64,000 nucleotides of DNA from an uncultured bacterium (lineage in GTDB: Bacteria > Verrucomicrobiota > Verrucomicrobiia > Verrucomicrobiales > DEV007). Shown in pieces: positions 9,175 to 17,402 of this stretch; the first letter of the stretch is position 1; the number at the start of each line of letters is the position of its first letter. The stretch covers positions 256,001-320,000 of the forward strand of contig CAXBMO010000001.1 in NCBI GenBank assembly GCA_963977015.1, in the 5' to 3' direction. The notes beneath the pieces were generated by a model. The model saw only the letters and a program-made list of their open reading frames with translations. It was not told where the DNA came from and made no database searches. Position numbers and translations under genes: made by a program.

Positions 9175-9588
9175 GTGAACTCCCCAAACCACCACATCGT
9201 CCTGTTCGATAGCGATTGCCCCATGTGCACGTTCCAGATGCGCGGGCTAACGTGGCTGGATTGGTTCAACAAGGTTCGGTTTCTGGCGATCAAGGATCCT
9301 GAAGCGGCGAAGGTCGCTCCCAGTTTGACTCGTGAAGACCTGTTGGAGGCGATTCACTGCATTACCAAAGATGGCAAGATCCATCGGGGAGCCCGTGCCC
9401 TCCGGTTTTTGGGAATGAGGATGCCGATGCTCGTTCCGTTGGCGCTTTTTCTCTGGATCCCGGGCGTGATCTGGGTTGCCGAGCGCATCTACATGTGGAT
9501 CAGCCGAAATCGGCACCTTCTCAGCAAGGTCTTTGGTTGCAAGGATGCCTGTTCGATCATGCCGGAGCGGCAGCGCGAAGTCGAGTGA
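9175..9588 (+). CDS. DCC1-like thiol-disulfide oxidoreductase (DUF393)
   Basis: FDSDCPMC (DxxCxxC) and YMWISRNR motifs. Confidence 0.85.
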   Translation: MNSPNHHIVLFDSDCPMCTFQMRGLTWLDWFNKVRFLAIKDPEAAKVAPSLTREDLLEAIHCITKDGKIHRGARALRFLGMRMPMLVPLALFLWIPGVIWVAERIYMWISRNRHLLSKVFGCKDACSIMPERQREVE

Positions 9589-9603: not shown

Positions 9604-11673
9604 TCACGGGGCCGAACTCAGTCGAAACAACAGCCATTCGGCACGCCGTTTGACTTCGGCATCCTTCGTTTGCTCCGCCGCCTCGATCAGTTGTGGCTTC
9701 GCGAGATAACCCAGCTCACCCAGTTGATCCGTCGCGTTTTCCCGGGTTTTCCAATCGTCGTCTCCCAGATCGCTGATCCATTTCGCGATTTTCGTCAGGG
9801 TTTCCGCAGTGATATTCGGAGACGGAACGACCGATTCGACGATGTCCTGAATCGGAATTTTCCAGGTCGAGTTCATCAGGCGAACGTCGAGAACGCGCTC
9901 TCGAAGCGTCCCCGAAACCACGCCTCCGCCCCAGAGCTCGGCGATAAAGGGCGGTTCCTGATTCGTCGGGGCAAGGTCCGGATCGTCGCCAAGTTGATTG
10001 ACGAGGTAGCGAATGCTGGTTGGATTCACCGGGATTGATTCGCTCTCGGTCAGCATCGTCAGCTGGGGAGCCAGAATGTTGCCGACCAGGCGTTGGCGCC
10101 CCCGAAGGTTGAGATAAGGTTCGGAGATTCGAGGCGATTCCCAGGTTGGGAGTTTGCGCGGATCCGACGTTGCCGCGGCTCGGGAGACGATCGCGCGAAT
10201 CTCGCGGGGGGAGATCGATTGGGACCCAAACCGCGACGTCTCAAACACGAACTCGCCTGCGCCGAGGAACGCGAAAAACCGACTTCCATTCTCCAGTTCG
10301 ACCTGATGTCCCACGGGCTCGGATTCCTGGGAAGAGAGAGCGGTGAGATCGGAAAGCCGAACTTCGACCGTTCCCCACGACGTCACCAACTCGAGCGCGG
10401 AATCGGGAGAGGGAAGCAATGCGAGTCGATCACCCGAATGCGTTTCCAAATAGGCGATGGCGTCATCCGGAATGATCTTCGGACTGGTTCCGGTTTCGAA
10501 ACTCCTGCCCAGAACCAAGCGATCCAGGTGCGCCGGTTCCAAATCCATCACCGTTTGATCGGGAAGCTGAAACTGGAGATTCTCAACGCTCAAGCTGCCT
10601 CCCAGAACCTGGCCGTCCTGCAAATACACCGTTTCCTGATCGCGGCGCTGGCGATGACTTCCCACGATTGCGGCGACCTCGTTGAAGGAGAGTTCCACCG
10701 CGCCAAACTCCGATTCGAGTTCCAGCCTGGCGCAAGTCGCTTCACCAAGAAGCCGGGTTGAATCAGCCACCGCGAGAATGTCGTTCCGGCCGCGCTGCAC
10801 GCCCAGTTGCTCGATGCTGGTGGTGGCAAGAAGTTCCATTCCCCGGGCTTCCTCTTCCAAGGTGAAATTGGCAAGATTGGTTCGAATCGAATTCGGCAGG
10901 GAACCCAGATTGCGATGGAGCGCGCCCGGGCGAAAGGATTCCACGAGCGACTTTCGGTCGAACGAAATCGGAACCGGGATCTGCGAGACCGTGTGCAACA
11001 AATGCTGGGTTTCACCCGGCTTGACCTGGATCTGGAAGTGGGTGCTGAGCACGTAACGGCTTTGAGCGGTGATGGTTGGGCGAGCCTCGCTTTTGGTTGA
11101 TCGAAGCGTCAGGACGAGGGCTCTGCGCACGTTGTTTGCCGTGGGCGTCACCAGAATCCCGGTTTGGTCGCGATTGAGCGTTGCGACTCCGGGGGCACCC
11201 GTATTGGTCAGGTAGTTTTTGTAGTTGCTGCTCAGGTGGGTCCGAATCTCGACCTGAACCGCAATTTCATTCGCCGTCTGGTTCTGGAACGATTCCAGAT
11301 AGCGGACGACCGCGTTCTGCTGATCCAGTCGAATGCGTCGGACCACCGAAAGACCACCATAGCCTTCGCCGACTTTTCCGGGGAGAACGAATTCCAAGCC
11401 GTCTTTCGTCATCAAAGACTGCTCCGCTTGAAACTGCTGATTGTTGATCAACAGCGTCATCCCGGTATTCATCATCGAGTTGCCGATGCGCCCGAGCGTT
11501 CCGTTTTGCTGAAAGTTCCAACTGCTGCCCTGCCGATCCGTGCGGAGGCCGAGAGCTGCCGGAATCAACGTTTCCTGGGATGACGATTCGTTGCTCGGGA
11601 CGAAAGTCTGGGCGTGGCTCGCGACCGTTCCCAGCAACGCGATGAGCAGGATTTTGCGCCAGAGTCCGATCAT
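9604..11673 (-). CDS. Secreted hypothetical protein: N-terminal beta-rich domain, six ~45-aa modules, C-terminal HEAT-like helices
   Basis: Start at 11673 (MIGLWRKILLIALLGTVASHAQ, signal peptide) overlaps upstream stop (ATGA). C-terminus LGDDDWKTRENATDQL is HEAT-like. Paralog of 11670-13517. Confidence 0.8.
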   Translation of the reverse strand: MIGLWRKILLIALLGTVASHAQTFVPSNESSSQETLIPAALGLRTDRQGSSWNFQQNGTLGRIGNSMMNTGMTLLINNQQFQAEQSLMTKDGLEFVLPGKVGEGYGGLSVVRRIRLDQQNAVVRYLESFQNQTANEIAVQVEIRTHLSSNYKNYLTNTGAPGVATLNRDQTGILVTPTANNVRRALVLTLRSTKSEARPTITAQSRYVLSTHFQIQVKPGETQHLLHTVSQIPVPISFDRKSLVESFRPGALHRNLGSLPNSIRTNLANFTLEEEARGMELLATTSIEQLGVQRGRNDILAVADSTRLLGEATCARLELESEFGAVELSFNEVAAIVGSHRQRRDQETVYLQDGQVLGGSLSVENLQFQLPDQTVMDLEPAHLDRLVLGRSFETGTSPKIIPDDAIAYLETHSGDRLALLPSPDSALELVTSWGTVEVRLSDLTALSSQESEPVGHQVELENGSRFFAFLGAGEFVFETSRFGSQSISPREIRAIVSRAAATSDPRKLPTWESPRISEPYLNLRGRQRLVGNILAPQLTMLTESESIPVNPTSIRYLVNQLGDDPDLAPTNQEPPFIAELWGGGVVSGTLRERVLDVRLMNSTWKIPIQDIVESVVPSPNITAETLTKIAKWISDLGDDDWKTRENATDQLGELGYLAKPQLIEAAEQTKDAEVKRRAEWLLFRLSSAP

Positions 11674-13517
11674 TGCGCTGAAGAATTGGGGGTGAGGAAA
11701 CCCAGAAAATGGAGGGCCGGGATTTCCCATTGTTGGCCTCGCGCCTCGACCAGGATGTTGGTGTCGCGGAGACGTCCGGCCATCGGAATGCCGCTTTGCA
11801 GCTCAATCTCAAACGTGGGTTGCTGGTCCAGAATTCCTTCCTCGGTTCTTCGAATCCAGGCGATGTCGTTCGCCAAAACCTCGGTCACCGCCGCCTCTGA
11901 AATCACGTGGAGAGTTTGACTGCTGAGGTTCCCGGGTAGTCGATTCCGCCCTTCCAACCAGAGTGTCGGGGCCTCCACTCCAGCAATCCATTCCTGATCA
12001 AATTCCGGCGTCATTTCCGGTTTGGAAGGACCTCCCGTTCCTGCTCGCCAAACTGCGCGAAGCTGTCCTGCGTCGATTTGCAATTCTCCCAATCGGGGAG
12101 TTCCAATCGTGAGTGGGAGCTCACTGATCACGAAACCGGTTAGGCGTGAACCGTCGACCAACTCAAGTTGCTGGCGGGGGCTCGGCCATGCCATGGTTCG
12201 CAGCTGGCTCACTTTGCGGAGCGGAACCTGGATGCGTCCCCACGGAATCGCAAACTCGACACGAGATTCCATCCCGTCTTGAATCGCCAAAACCTCGCCG
12301 GTCTTCAGCTCGGCGAATCCCCAAACCTCGCTCGGAAGTTTCCCATCATCCTTGCTCACCTTGAGAAAGAGAGCGTCAAACGAGTCCGGCTCCAGCGTCA
12401 TTTCCCAGCCATCAGCCCCGCCCATCCGGGCTCCGATTGCCGTCGACGTTCCAATCAGGACTTCGCCGTCTCGGGTAAACACTTCGTGGTAGCGATTGAC
12501 CCCGCGGCCACCGCGCAATCCGGCAATCTGGGACCATTCCAGCTGAACCGCGCCAAATCGGGATTGGAAATCGAGAGGCTGGGTTGGTTGGACCGTGCCG
12601 CGAAGCTGGTTCTCGCGACTCATCCAGAGGAGATCCTCGCCACCACGTTCTGCGTCGAGTTCCTCCAACCACCGATTCAGGCCCACCAGCGCTTCCGCAT
12701 CGAAGGCCGCGGCCAACGGCTCGGGTGAGGAAGGCAGGGCAAAGTTCTGAACCTGGTCCGGAGCGATTTCGCGCGGCAGATTGGACTTGAGGGGGCCACG
12801 GCGATGATAAATCGGATCAAACAACGCCGGCGCGGTCGCGAGATTGGTCACGGTGCGCTGTTCGGCCCAATACAGAACGGCAATCGTGGCTCCCGCGGGA
12901 ATGGTGAGATTGTATTGGAAAACGATCTCGCGATTGCTGTTCCCGGCCCGAACATTCGGTCGCACCGATCCGTTAGAATCGCCAAACAGATAAAGCATGT
13001 CGCTCCGCCCATCGATCGAGTTGAACTTCAGCAGCATGCCGGCGTCGCGAGGGCCGGGGCGGGTGTCGATCAACTTTCCGGAGTTCGAGTAGAGGTCCTG
13101 CCACGCCTGGCTGAAATCGCTTCTCACCTCGATCGGTAGCCGCAATTCACGATCCGCGCTGCGGTTGGTGATGATCTCCAAATGCCGGACGGCGCTGCGT
13201 TTCGTGTCGATCCAGACGTCGCGCCGAATCTTGAGGCCGGGCGATTCCCGTTCAAACGCGAAACGCGTCTCGTTCAATTGATACGCCGCCGTCGCTTCAA
13301 ACTTGGCGCCATTCACCGAAAGCTCATTCGCGGACTGAAACACGTTCGTCCCCATCGTGTAGAACGAACCGGCGCCGGTGAGCTGCCAAAAGAACCCGAA
13401 ATCGTCCTTCACCGGTTCAAACCGATTCGGCACCGCGTCCAGCTTCTCCCACGCCTCCTCCTTCGCGCCGAGCGCTTGGAGTAAAATGAGGCTGACGACG
13501 AGGGCGACGCGAATCAT
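11670..13517 (-). CDS. Secreted hypothetical protein, paralog of downstream gene (no HEAT tail)
   Basis: Start MIRVALVVSLILLQALGA (signal peptide); IRRDVWID..AVRHLEIITN aligns with VVRRIRLD..VVRYLESFQN of the neighbour. Confidence 0.8.
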   Translation of the reverse strand: MIRVALVVSLILLQALGAKEEAWEKLDAVPNRFEPVKDDFGFFWQLTGAGSFYTMGTNVFQSANELSVNGAKFEATAAYQLNETRFAFERESPGLKIRRDVWIDTKRSAVRHLEIITNRSADRELRLPIEVRSDFSQAWQDLYSNSGKLIDTRPGPRDAGMLLKFNSIDGRSDMLYLFGDSNGSVRPNVRAGNSNREIVFQYNLTIPAGATIAVLYWAEQRTVTNLATAPALFDPIYHRRGPLKSNLPREIAPDQVQNFALPSSPEPLAAAFDAEALVGLNRWLEELDAERGGEDLLWMSRENQLRGTVQPTQPLDFQSRFGAVQLEWSQIAGLRGGRGVNRYHEVFTRDGEVLIGTSTAIGARMGGADGWEMTLEPDSFDALFLKVSKDDGKLPSEVWGFAELKTGEVLAIQDGMESRVEFAIPWGRIQVPLRKVSQLRTMAWPSPRQQLELVDGSRLTGFVISELPLTIGTPRLGELQIDAGQLRAVWRAGTGGPSKPEMTPEFDQEWIAGVEAPTLWLEGRNRLPGNLSSQTLHVISEAAVTEVLANDIAWIRRTEEGILDQQPTFEIELQSGIPMAGRLRDTNILVEARGQQWEIPALHFLGFLTPNSSAQ

Positions 13518-13601
13518 GGAACAGGACGATTGGCACAGAAACACGCGCCAACGTAGCGGAAATTGCACGAAATCGGGCTTAAACCTGATTCGCGAAACGG
13601 C

Positions 13602-14276
13602 TCATCTGCCATTCGCGGCGATCTCGCTCAGTTCGCGACTCCATATCCAGAATGCCTTCTTGGCGCGTCCCCAACGGCTCAGACCACCAACGATTTCGGT
13701 TTTCCCCGTCTGATCTTCGTCGATCATGGCGTAAAAACGCTCCTTGGTTTCCGAATCGATGATCTCAGCTTGAACCGCGACCGTGCCTGAACCTGGAAAA
13801 TCGCCGCGAACCGCCCACAAGGCTGATGTCGCCGCAAAGGAGGTCGGCGTGTAGCCCGCCGCAAAAAGAAGGGGCGAATTGGGCTCCATTTCGACGACGG
13901 CCGCCCGCACCGTGAGGCTTCCGGGGATTGGTTGATCGACGAGATGCAGTTTCTCGCCGAAGGACTGCGTTAGCGCGGTTTCGAAGGATTCGGCCAGCAT
14001 GTTGGCTTCTTCGCGATTGGGGGCCGCCCGGCGAATCCGGCGATTGTGGTGTTCGAGCACCATTCCGCGCACCGAAACATCCTCGATGTAGACGTCTTGG
14101 TAACTCCGCAGTTTCGCGAGGTTCCCTTCGTAAACCAAAGCGCCGTTGATGCCCGGTTTCTTCGAAAATCCGTGATAGGAGCCGAGGTAGTTGCCGCTGG
14201 GAGGCGATTCAATCGACTTGCAGCTGACCAATCCGGTCATGACGCCGATGAAAAGGAAGAGTTGCACAGGTTTCAC
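13602..14276 (-). CDS. DUF3313-like lipoprotein
   Basis: Lipobox LVSC; SGNYL, LTVRAAV, AEIIDSET..., W...AF..W pattern typical of the family. Confidence 0.7.
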   Translation of the reverse strand: MKPVQLFLFIGVMTGLVSCKSIESPPSGNYLGSYHGFSKKPGINGALVYEGNLAKLRSYQDVYIEDVSVRGMVLEHHNRRIRRAAPNREEANMLAESFETALTQSFGEKLHLVDQPIPGSLTVRAAVVEMEPNSPLLFAAGYTPTSFAATSALWAVRGDFPGSGTVAVQAEIIDSETKERFYAMIDEDQTGKTEIVGGLSRWGRAKKAFWIWSRELSEIAANGR

Positions 14277-15479: not shown

Positions 15480-17402
15480 ATGTCGACTCATCTCAATCGC
15501 GTAGCTGTTTCCTCCGGGAATCGTACGCAATTGCGGATGCTCGACCAGTATTTGGAGACCAACGGGCTGGGGGGCTACTCCTGCGGGACGTTGAGCGGCA
15601 TTCGCCAGTGGCCTTCGCAGGGAATGGTCGTGGTCGCCAAAAAGCCACCCATCGATCGCTACGTCTTGATCAACGGTTTTGACGTGACCGTCGAATTTGG
15701 CGAGGAGAAGGTTCCGATCACCACCAATCGCTACAAGGGGGATCGCTTTGAGCCTGATGCCCGCAAGCGGTTGCTCCAGTTTGAGAGCAAACCGTGGCCC
15801 TGCTGGACCTACGATCTTGGCCACAACCGCGCCATTCAGTTTGAGATCATGGCGCGGCATGGAACCAACCAATTTGTCTTTTCCTGGCACCTCGAAGTTT
15901 CCAATGAGCCCGCCCTGCTTCGCGTGAAGCCGCTCCTTTCCGGGCGCCCCATGAACTCGACCCGGAACGAGTCCAAAAAAATGGAACTGCGCCCGGAGCG
16001 CCCCTCTCCCCGCCAGTTTGTCTGGAAACTGAGAGCCGGTGCTCCTGCCCTGTCCCTCCTGTCTGACGGCGACTTCTTCGAGCGTGGTCGCTGGGTTCGG
16101 GACCTCGTCTACGACAATCACAGTACTGAAGACCTAGCCTGCCCGGGGGAGTTCCGCTGGGAACTGGGTGTTAAACAGCGCGCCCAAATCATCGCCTGCA
16201 CGGCCGAGGAAATGGAGGAGAATCCGCGCACCGCCAATGAAGTCGCGCACCTGGCCAACAAGCTTCGCAACGCCGAGCGCACCCGTCGCAAGCTCTTCCG
16301 CTCGGAACTCGACCGCGCCGCCGACCAATACATTGTGGAAGGAGCCGACGGAAGAACGCTGCTTTCCGGTTTCCCGCGCGGCACCGAGATGGGCGCACGC
16401 GCCATGATCGCGATTCGCGGCATCTGCCTCAGCCCCGGCCGACTCGATGTCGCCAGCCGCGTGCTCGAAACCTGGAGAGGCCGTGTCGCCACCGGCATGT
16501 TGCCCAGCGAGATCTCCGAGCACCGCCTCAACCCCACCTACTCCTCGCCCGAACCTTCCCTTTGGTACATCGTCGCAGCTTACGAATACTTTCGCGCTTC
16601 CTACCGCCAAGGCCGCCTCTTGCGGGAGGAGGAACGGACAGAAATCGAAGAGAGCATCAACCAGATCCTCGGATCCTTTTCTGATCGGCGGCACAAGGAA
16701 GCCTTCATGGACGAGGACGGCCTGCTCGCCGAATCCAGGCTCACCTCCCGCCGCGAGCGCGAGGGCGAAGTCGTCAAACGCGTTCAGGTTCAGGCCCTCT
16801 GGATCACCGCGTTGTGGATTGGCGCCCGGCTCGACAAGCGATGGAATGAGGGGTTCGAAATGGCCCGCGATGAATTTGATCGCGCCTTCTGGTTTGAGGA
16901 AAAAGGCTACCTCTACAAATCGATCATCCGCTCGCCCAACAAATCCATTCAACGGGTCCAGAGCATCAGCATGGAGCAAATTCTCGCTGTTGGCGGACTC
17001 CCCTTCGTCTGTGTCGACGAAGGCAAAGCCAGCCTCATCGTCAACGCCCTCGAAGAGCGCTACGCCACGCCGGACGACGTCAAAATGGCCACCTCTTTCC
17101 CCTGGCTCTTCGGCCCCTTCGTCGAGGCCTGGTATCGCGTTCGTCACCGTGAACCCAATGCGCTCCAGGAGGCCAAAATGCGCTTCATCGACCCCTGGGA
17201 AGCCCACCTCAAATTCGGTGGCCTCAACCACCTGCCGGAGAATCAGCCCTTCGTTGCCCGCGGCACCGTCCCCACCAATATCAAGCAGGCCTCCTTCAGT
17301 GCGATCGAGACCTCCGAGCTCCTCCGCATCCTCCACATGCCCGATCTCCAGCGGAACAAGGCTCCATTCGAGGATCGCCGGAACCAGCCGCTCCACCGGT
17401 AG
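15480..17402 (+). CDS. Amylo-alpha-1,6-glucosidase (glycogen debranching) homolog with degenerate catalytic motifs
   Basis: N-terminal YLETNGLGGYSCGT, AADQYIV..TLLSGFP, GMLP, VQALW, PWLFGPF; the catalytic motifs are altered (see findings). Confidence 0.8.
   Translation: MSTHLNRVAVSSGNRTQLRMLDQYLETNGLGGYSCGTLSGIRQWPSQGMVVVAKKPPIDRYVLINGFDVTVEFGEEKVPITTNRYKGDRFEPDARKRLLQFESKPWPCWTYDLGHNRAIQFEIMARHGTNQFVFSWHLEVSNEPALLRVKPLLSGRPMNSTRNESKKMELRPERPSPRQFVWKLRAGAPALSLLSDGDFFERGRWVRDLVYDNHSTEDLACPGEFRWELGVKQRAQIIACTAEEMEENPRTANEVAHLANKLRNAERTRRKLFRSELDRAADQYIVEGADGRTLLSGFPRGTEMGARAMIAIRGICLSPGRLDVASRVLETWRGRVATGMLPSEISEHRLNPTYSSPEPSLWYIVAAYEYFRASYRQGRLLREEERTEIEESINQILGSFSDRRHKEAFMDEDGLLAESRLTSRREREGEVVKRVQVQALWITALWIGARLDKRWNEGFEMARDEFDRAFWFEEKGYLYKSIIRSPNKSIQRVQSISMEQILAVGGLPFVCVDEGKASLIVNALEERYATPDDVKMATSFPWLFGPFVEAWYRVRHREPNALQEAKMRFIDPWEAHLKFGGLNHLPENQPFVARGTVPTNIKQASFSAIETSELLRILHMPDLQRNKAPFEDRRNQPLHR

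Follow-up and report, generated by a model that had tools for sequence, protein, structure and literature searches.

Positions 9604 to 13517 of the window (the whole 64,000-nucleotide stretch of DNA analysed here, from an uncultured verrucomicrobial bacterium) carry two overlapping genes, whose products we call SHORT and LONG. From their sequences, structural models and gene order we infer, with slightly better than even confidence, that the two proteins bind each other, are exported and, linked to a MoxR ATPase, form the heterodimeric scaffold or adaptor arm of a Bat-like, MoxR-serviced envelope complex. Each chain would begin with a non-catalytic beta-supersandwich head and continue with six homologous, five-stranded small-barrel modules (A to F), whose shared beta-ladders would make one rigid body of the array. 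The two rigid bodies would dock face to face, using equivalent surfaces with an invariant W-G pair of module C at their centre, leaving the heads and a HEAT-like tail on LONG free for other partners. The pair would thus be the exported, periplasmic first part of a Bat-like envelope cluster, and we favor a scaffold or adaptor role because it heads such a cluster in most genomes of the Planctomycetota-Verrucomicrobiota-Chlamydiota (PVC) bacteria.

A conserved pair of paralogs with a predicted interface

SHORT and LONG are colinear paralogs (BLASTP, 25% identity over ~600 amino acids (aa), E 2e-38), and the start codon of LONG shares the sequence ATGA with the stop codon of SHORT, an overlap of the translational-coupling type. 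The SHORT start at 13517 is backed by orthologs of 615-616 aa, and an alternative in-frame GTG lies upstream at 13568. Both proteins probably carry signal peptides, judged by eye from N-termini with a basic stretch, a hydrophobic run and small residues at the end, and would be exported and periplasmic. A helical tail is present in LONG without a counterpart in SHORT. It matches Pfam HEAT_2 at residues 635-679 with E 2.6e-4 and 21.6 bits, under the 27.7-bit cut-off, and this is the only Pfam match in LONG; SHORT has none. HEAT_2 was matched in 14 of 44 family members (E<=0.1), and NCBIfam gave no match for SHORT, LONG or the third protein of the related clusters (below). A reading of this DNA that preceded our analysis, the sequence-only reading, had described two ATGA-coupled signal-peptide proteins of the same layout with a HEAT tail on one chain only, and the open reading frames (ORFs), the overlap, the BLASTP alignment and, for the tail of LONG, the below-cut-off HEAT_2 match together with three long helices in the model bear it out, the signal peptides having been recognized by eye. 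A scan for promoters and terminators was uninformative, with 0 promoters and 4 terminator-like sites where 6.6 were expected.

The family is large. A word-indexed search returned 42 relatives of LONG and 4 of SHORT, and an exhaustive profile search found 11,450 representatives at E<=0.001, with 701 at E<=1e-30; the nearest clusters in the ESM Atlas are from Verrucomicrobiota and Planctomycetota and have no Pfam family. We also scanned species-representative genomes with patterns drawn from verrucomicrobial LONG proteins (a 22-row alignment), so the resulting sample leans that way. It comprises 45 loci, 33 of them labelled as Verrucomicrobiota lineages, 9 as Planctomycetota, 1 as Victivallales and 2 unlabelled. 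The tail-less paralog lies directly upstream of the tailed one at 39 of the 45, and the six exceptions are two loci cut by contig ends, two Prosthecobacter loci with LONG alone, one Brocadiia locus with a SHORT-type gene and one broken LONG. Strong matches were present in 16 of 41 related genomes, where the pair is in tandem wherever both genes share a contig. The same is true of all six longer regions of relatives that contain both genes, at least three of which (L018, L019 and L020) have the 4-base stop/start overlap, and natural SHORT-LONG fusions in the same order exist (P0048, 1302 aa; P0049, 1278 aa). Conservation of the pair across PVC genomes, which the sequence-only reading had put forward as a check, is therefore what the SHORT-then-LONG order at 39 of 45 loci in Verrucomicrobiota, Planctomycetota and Victivallales reveals. 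This is an unnamed family, confined among the 45 loci examined to PVC bacteria or unlabelled metagenome-assembled genomes, and without a Pfam or NCBIfam model. No paper describing it was found in literature searches confined to MoxR, Bat and PVC themes, the family being nameless, which does not establish its absence from print.

Structural modeling predicts that SHORT binds LONG through the module arrays. The complex model paired SHORT 19-615 (alignment A5) with LONG 290-689 (alignment A1, the 44-sequence family alignment) and left out the LONG N-domain. It reached interface scores (ipSAE) of 0.82, 0.79 and 0.80, compared with 0.00 for all three controls, with 125-136 contacts, at least 86% of them common to the runs, and a partner pLDDT (predicted local distance difference test) of 81-83. 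Of 157 solved complexes, 116 attain this mark, as do 2 of 215 mismatched pairs; these counts are a rough guide here, where our own alignments were used. The pass is not the memory of a solved complex, because the proteins have no sequence relative in the PDB. The predicted interface joins array to array at homologous positions in the two chains (the SHORT number being the LONG number minus 7), with equivalent residue pairs such as 1:462-2:430 and 1:423-2:469, and has pseudo-two-fold symmetry. Its lowest-error pairs run from module C to module D' and the reverse, with further C-C' and C-F' contacts, and the module C W-G (W433/G434 in LONG), which is invariant in 44 of 44 aligned sequences, sits within it. 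The HEAT-like tail is absent from the listed interface, and the list contains just two SHORT residues ahead of the array, 282 and 286, both from the linker that follows the head. A heterodimer had already been proposed from the sequence, and the array-to-array binding predicted at an ipSAE of 0.80 against 0.00 in the controls agrees with that proposal.

The same model has a bearing on the alternative that SHORT and LONG are functionally separate duplicates, each forming homodimers or higher homo-oligomers, and are not partners. We consider this quite unlikely in view of the fixed gene order, the stop/start overlap and the fusions that keep the order of the separate genes, even though an isologous interface, such as the one predicted, is what the descendant of a homodimer should have, and LONG occurs alone at the two Prosthecobacter loci and the SHORT-type gene without an upstream paralog at the Brocadiia locus (where ~280 bases of downstream sequence are available). 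The heterodimer of our preferred interpretation might be carried further: it is possible, although we regard it as doubtful, that SHORT and LONG make an obligate twelve-barrel heterodimer without a solved counterpart, and that this heterodimer is the exported end at which a MoxR-serviced envelope machine, common to the PVC bacteria, does its work.

Six predicted small-barrel modules in each chain

Each module is ~45 aa long, and the 12 modules of LONG and SHORT can be aligned nearly without gaps. A plain BLAST self-comparison found no internal repeats, whereas module profiles cut out of the 44-sequence family alignment matched one another by profile-profile comparison (hhalign) in register, with a probability of at least 80% for 7 of 15 module pairs and a maximum of 94%; the repeats are therefore detectable only at the profile level. 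Neither control reached that mark: comparisons of modules with segments of the N-domain or tail peaked at 2.9% (0 of 36), and those with reversed modules at 24% (0 of 30). The six-module pattern is thus real and homologous across the modules, as judged by these alignments, and the six modules per chain of the sequence-only reading lie close to where it had placed them, at 10785-9814 in LONG and 12638-11679 in SHORT.

AlphaFold2 (AF2), run on the family alignment, modeled full-length LONG with a mean pLDDT of 86.5 and a predicted TM-score (pTM) of 0.62, and LONG aa 290-622 alone with a pLDDT of 91.1 and a pTM of 0.86. Every module in the model has five short strands, with a three-residue helical turn ahead of the last. 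Coevolution was computed from 239 gap-poor sequences (effective number, Neff, ~224; 312 columns), an input noisy enough that only the strongest ladders are trustworthy. The strongest coupling, 539-592 (z 10.6), belongs with 535-596, 534-598 and 534-596 to an antiparallel ladder that joins modules E and F (E534-539/F590-598). A second antiparallel ladder joins A to B (A316-323/B357-364; couplings 317-363, 323-357, 316-364 and 319-361), and another ladder links B to C through 360-443, 361-442 and 365-435. The top 110 coevolving pairs include 17 between E and F, 11 between A and B, 8 each for B-C and C-D, 3 for D-E and 0 for A-F, and a single A-F pair appears in the top 200. Because these ladders agree with the pTM of 0.86 of the isolated array, we read the modules as non-independent, and the six are predicted to pack as one rigid body through shared beta-ladders. 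They would not be loose beads; modules folding as independent beads had been named in the sequence-only reading as an outcome that would refute it. The linker between D and E tolerates the insertion of whole domains, since three SHORT-type relatives of 853-869 aa (P0122, P0134 and P0174) have two ~90-aa domains inserted there; these inserts resemble the periplasmic STN (secretin/TonB N-terminal) domain weakly, with below-cut-off E values of 1.2e-4 and 3.2e-3.

The array is a tandem small-barrel architecture which, as modeled, has no close match in the PDB. Foldseek returned nothing for it from the PDB at E<=0.001, the best match being the KOW tandems of Spt5 (E 1.3e-3), and sequence searches of the PDB gave nothing significant with either the module profile (best E 0.75, to an unrelated chain) or the family profile (best Sm match E 0.89). 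An exhaustive structural scan with the array gave Z>=5 for 2 of 48,161 chains, both on modules E+F: the C-terminal domain of TagJ/HsiE1 (4uqx; Z 7.8, 91 residues, root-mean-square deviation (rmsd) 3.3) and the ImpE-like VPA1032 (1zbp; Z 6.3, 93 residues). Hfq, Sm/Lsm, Tudor, BirA C-terminal and designed SH3 barrels match weakly (Z 3-4.8); the Hfq chains 3hfo, 6gwk, 5szd and 1kq1 reach Z ~4 over 42-53 residues with rmsd 1.9-4.1, and other small barrels do equally well. The structural matches each cover two sequence modules (ranges 7-100, 115-210 and 228-333). A further match, within modules E+F (model range 229-328), is to residues 238-287 of PDB 7zs0_A, in the C-terminal portion of Kustd1711, a diheme cytochrome c from the planctomycete Kuenenia; the fit is unusually tight (Z 4.3, with an rmsd of 1.5 A for 45 residues at 18% identity), and from this structural match the same small-barrel module may be present in other exported PVC proteins.

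The modules had been proposed to be Sm/Hfq-like, and this proposal is partly supported. Five strands per module and weak Hfq and Lsm matches, at a level that other small barrels reach too, are indeed what the models give, but membership of the Sm family is not supported: a helix before the first strand, as at the N-terminus of Sm proteins, is absent from all six modules by DSSP in both AF2 models, Pfam LSM and Hfq have no match at E<=1 in LONG or SHORT and none at E<=0.1 in the 44 members, and the best Sm match of the family profile is the insignificant one given above. The Sm idea thus appears to survive as a resemblance at the level of the fold alone. Closure of each array into an Hfq/Sm-like pseudo-hexameric ring, with two such rings pairing, would make use of the six modules per chain, of the predicted rigidity and array-to-array binding, and of the structural matches in that they include several Hfq and Lsm chains (Z 3-4). 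We nevertheless find it decidedly unlikely. The structural matches always extend over two modules, and the best is a two-barrel TagJ/HsiE1 domain, not a ring protein; the A-F couplings that ring closure calls for are nearly missing; the C-F' and C-C' contacts of the complex model are at odds with a stack of two six-membered rings; and the Sm helix and the LSM/Hfq family matches are lacking.

The head domain and the MoxR cluster

The N-domain of LONG is, as modeled, a beta-supersandwich of the glycoside hydrolase (GH) type, the fold being matched across the whole domain. Foldseek pairs it with the P1 domain of YidC (E 1.5e-7) and with the N-domains of cellobiose and maltose phosphorylases. A second aligner, VIA, gives Z 14-16 to N-domains of the GH15/65/94/116 type with 198-213 residues aligned (~205) and rmsd 3.1-3.8, and in a scan of 984 chains found 428 at Z>=8; sequence identity to these fold matches is 6-13%. 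In the AF2 model the supersandwich does not lead into an (alpha/alpha)6 catalytic domain, everything past residue 290 being all-beta modules and the short helical tail, and no GH family of Pfam matches LONG, SHORT or the 44 members. The head domain also recurs in tandem in the giant protein P0152 (6011 aa), nine separate stretches of which match the family supersandwich.

The gene order in other genomes places the pair at the head of a cluster that continues with a third gene, a MoxR gene, a gene for a TPR/propeller giant, DUF58, BatA_N/VWA and a VWA/GATase1-like gene. Of the 39 loci with room for it, at least 31 have the third gene after the pair, and 27 of the 34 with enough downstream sequence have a MoxR AAA_3 ATPase gene there on the same strand. 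The third protein (the P0194 family), which we read as a membrane-anchored coiled-coil protein, is ~640 aa long and has no Pfam family; it has hydrophobic helices at its N-terminus, a long helical region rich in charged residues, a stretch rich in Pro, Gly and Gln, and a C-terminus that is conserved. The giant after MoxR (~1450 aa) contains TPR and PQQ_2/BamB-like propeller domains. In the five extended loci of other genomes (L071-L075), MoxR is followed every time by genes for BatA_N/VWA membrane proteins and in four by DUF58, the fifth being L072, for which DUF58 was neither tested nor listed. The third gene is also present in 15 of the 16 pair-bearing genomes among the 41 relatives, and the exception is 59% complete. 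The two Prosthecobacter loci with LONG and no SHORT (L054 and L055) are a reduced variant of the cluster: LONG is directly followed by a more distant MoxR (E ~1e-71), and there is no third gene.

Two other systems were considered and set aside. A defence system was dropped after PADLOC came back blank for the pair, the third protein and the TPR giant, with weak P-loop matches for MoxR only. The MoxR-vWA-YebA transglutaminase system (PMC3495828) is an operon of another kind, and the loci studied here showed no TGL protein.

If the synteny with MoxR were a habit of the lineage without functional meaning, SHORT and LONG could be secreted accessories that bind or process glycans and act alone. We think this unlikely, since no catalytic domain stands behind the supersandwich, the same supersandwich occurs in non-enzymes such as YidC P1, and the synteny with the third gene and MoxR extends across three phyla. 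The high Z scores to GH15/65/94/116 heads would nonetheless agree with it, as would the separation of the pair from MoxR in the present genome and the glycogen-debranching-type (GDE) gene nearby (Table 1); the window neighbors of the pair, for their part, are not conserved with it.

Our preferred interpretation, that of an envelope scaffold or adaptor arm, has to be set against several observations that count against it. In this genome the pair is not adjacent to MoxR, and the cluster is split over three contigs: the third gene (C25:8736-10574) lies beside ClpB and DAC-domain genes, and C13 carries the orthologous MoxR (73% identity) together with the TPR giant, so there is no operon link here; the genome has nine MoxR-like matches at E<=1e-20. 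The third gene occurs in five related genomes that lack the pair, and the MoxR cluster therefore does not need the pair. LONG is alone at the two Prosthecobacter loci. The binding is predicted by a model of SHORT 19-615 with LONG 290-689, and a pass in such a model would not tell a heterodimer from a homodimer, as close cousins of a true partner also pass. What the interpretation offers in return is a pair tied by synteny to one Bat-like cluster, with a concrete heterodimer interface that the modeling supports, and both the family and its module could enter the domain databases.

The genes next to the pair in the window are a DUF3313 lipoprotein gene upstream and DCC1-like, PHP, YccF, APRT and GDE genes, none of which is conserved beside the pair in the relatives examined. 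In one relative (L017), a DCC1-like homolog is likewise found close to the pair, possibly by coincidence. Table 1 gives the coordinates of the pair, its domains and modules, and these neighbors.

Table 1. The SHORT and LONG genes, their parts and neighboring genes, in window coordinates
Feature	Position	Strand	Content or basis
LONG paralog (P0001), 689 aa	9604..11673	-	Signal peptide, supersandwich, six-module array, HEAT-like tail; ORF and translation
LONG N-domain, aa 32-261	10891..11580	-	Beta-supersandwich; Foldseek, VIA
LONG six-module array, aa 297-620	9814..10785	-	Profile comparison, module alignment, AF2 model; predicted dimer interface here
LONG module A	10654-10785	-	
LONG module B	10498-10644	-	
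LONG module C	10324-10467	-	
LONG module D	10174-10314	-	
LONG module E	9988-10125	-	
LONG module F	9814-9957	-	
LONG C-terminal helical HEAT-like tail, aa 623-687	9613..9807	-	HEAT_2 below cut-off; helices 623-635, 641-668 and 672-687 in AF2 model
SHORT paralog (P0002), 615 aa	11670..13517	-	Signal peptide, supersandwich, six-module array, no tail; ORF and translation
SHORT N-domain, ~aa 24-250	12768..13448	-	Homologous to LONG supersandwich; colinear BLASTP with LONG, chain pLDDT 84 in complex model
SHORT six-module array, aa 294-613	11679..12638	-	Module alignment; predicted interface residues within 282-603
SHORT module A	12504-12638	-	
SHORT module B	12351-12494	-	
SHORT module C	12189-12332	-	
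SHORT module D	12036-12179	-	
SHORT module E	11841-11975	-	
SHORT module F	11679-11822	-	
DUF3313 lipoprotein gene	13602-14276	-	E 1.7e-24; lipobox-like VSC near N-terminus; 84 bases upstream of pair
DCC1-like thiol-disulfide oxidoreductase gene	9175-9588	+	Converges on LONG 3' end
Glycogen-debranching-type (GDE) gene	15480-17402		Near pair

Comparison with known systems

The modules are like those of Hfq, Sm and LSm proteins in being, as modeled, five-stranded antiparallel small barrels of ~45 residues with a glycine after the first strand. They differ from them in having neither the N-terminal helix nor Sm1/Sm2 motifs nor a Pfam match, in being covalently in tandem and probably exported, and in showing no link to RNA. 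The best structural matches to the module pair E+F, TagJ/HsiE1 and VPA1032, are type VI secretion accessories, although their Z scores are in a range common for unrelated models and the array has no sequence or Pfam match to ImpE. These proteins are cytoplasmic, with a TPR-like head and one two-barrel unit, whereas the array has three such units. The KOW tandems of Spt5 are likewise tandem small barrels in one chain and are the sole Foldseek matches to the whole array, but TM-scores of 0.09-0.14 and rmsd of ~19-26 A indicate that the arrangement is dissimilar.

The head of LONG is the same beta-supersandwich as the N-domains of GH15, GH65, GH94 and GH116 and the P1 domain of YidC (the galactose-mutarotase-like fold). 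In those GH enzymes an (alpha/alpha)6 catalytic domain follows it, whereas LONG has none and lacks the Pfam match.

With respect to gene content the nearest known systems are the MoxR-DUF58-BatA/BatB-TPR operons of the Bat (Bacteroides aerotolerance) type (PMC3557215, PMC5700661). The pair stands alone in this window, unlike the genes of such operons, but most PVC loci have MoxR (AAA_3), TPR, DUF58 and BatA_N/VWA genes after it, as the Bat-type operons do. To our knowledge, neither a paralog pair of this kind nor a third coiled-coil/Pro-Gly protein belongs to the Bat operons described so far. Bat-like clusters of MoxR, DUF58 and vWA genes are widespread among bacteria, and what they do is still poorly understood; if the doubtful reading of an obligate twelve-barrel heterodimer is correct, SHORT and LONG would be the first candidate for a periplasmic partner, with an interface open to testing, of the Bat-type MoxR/vWA systems, which have long lacked an explanation.

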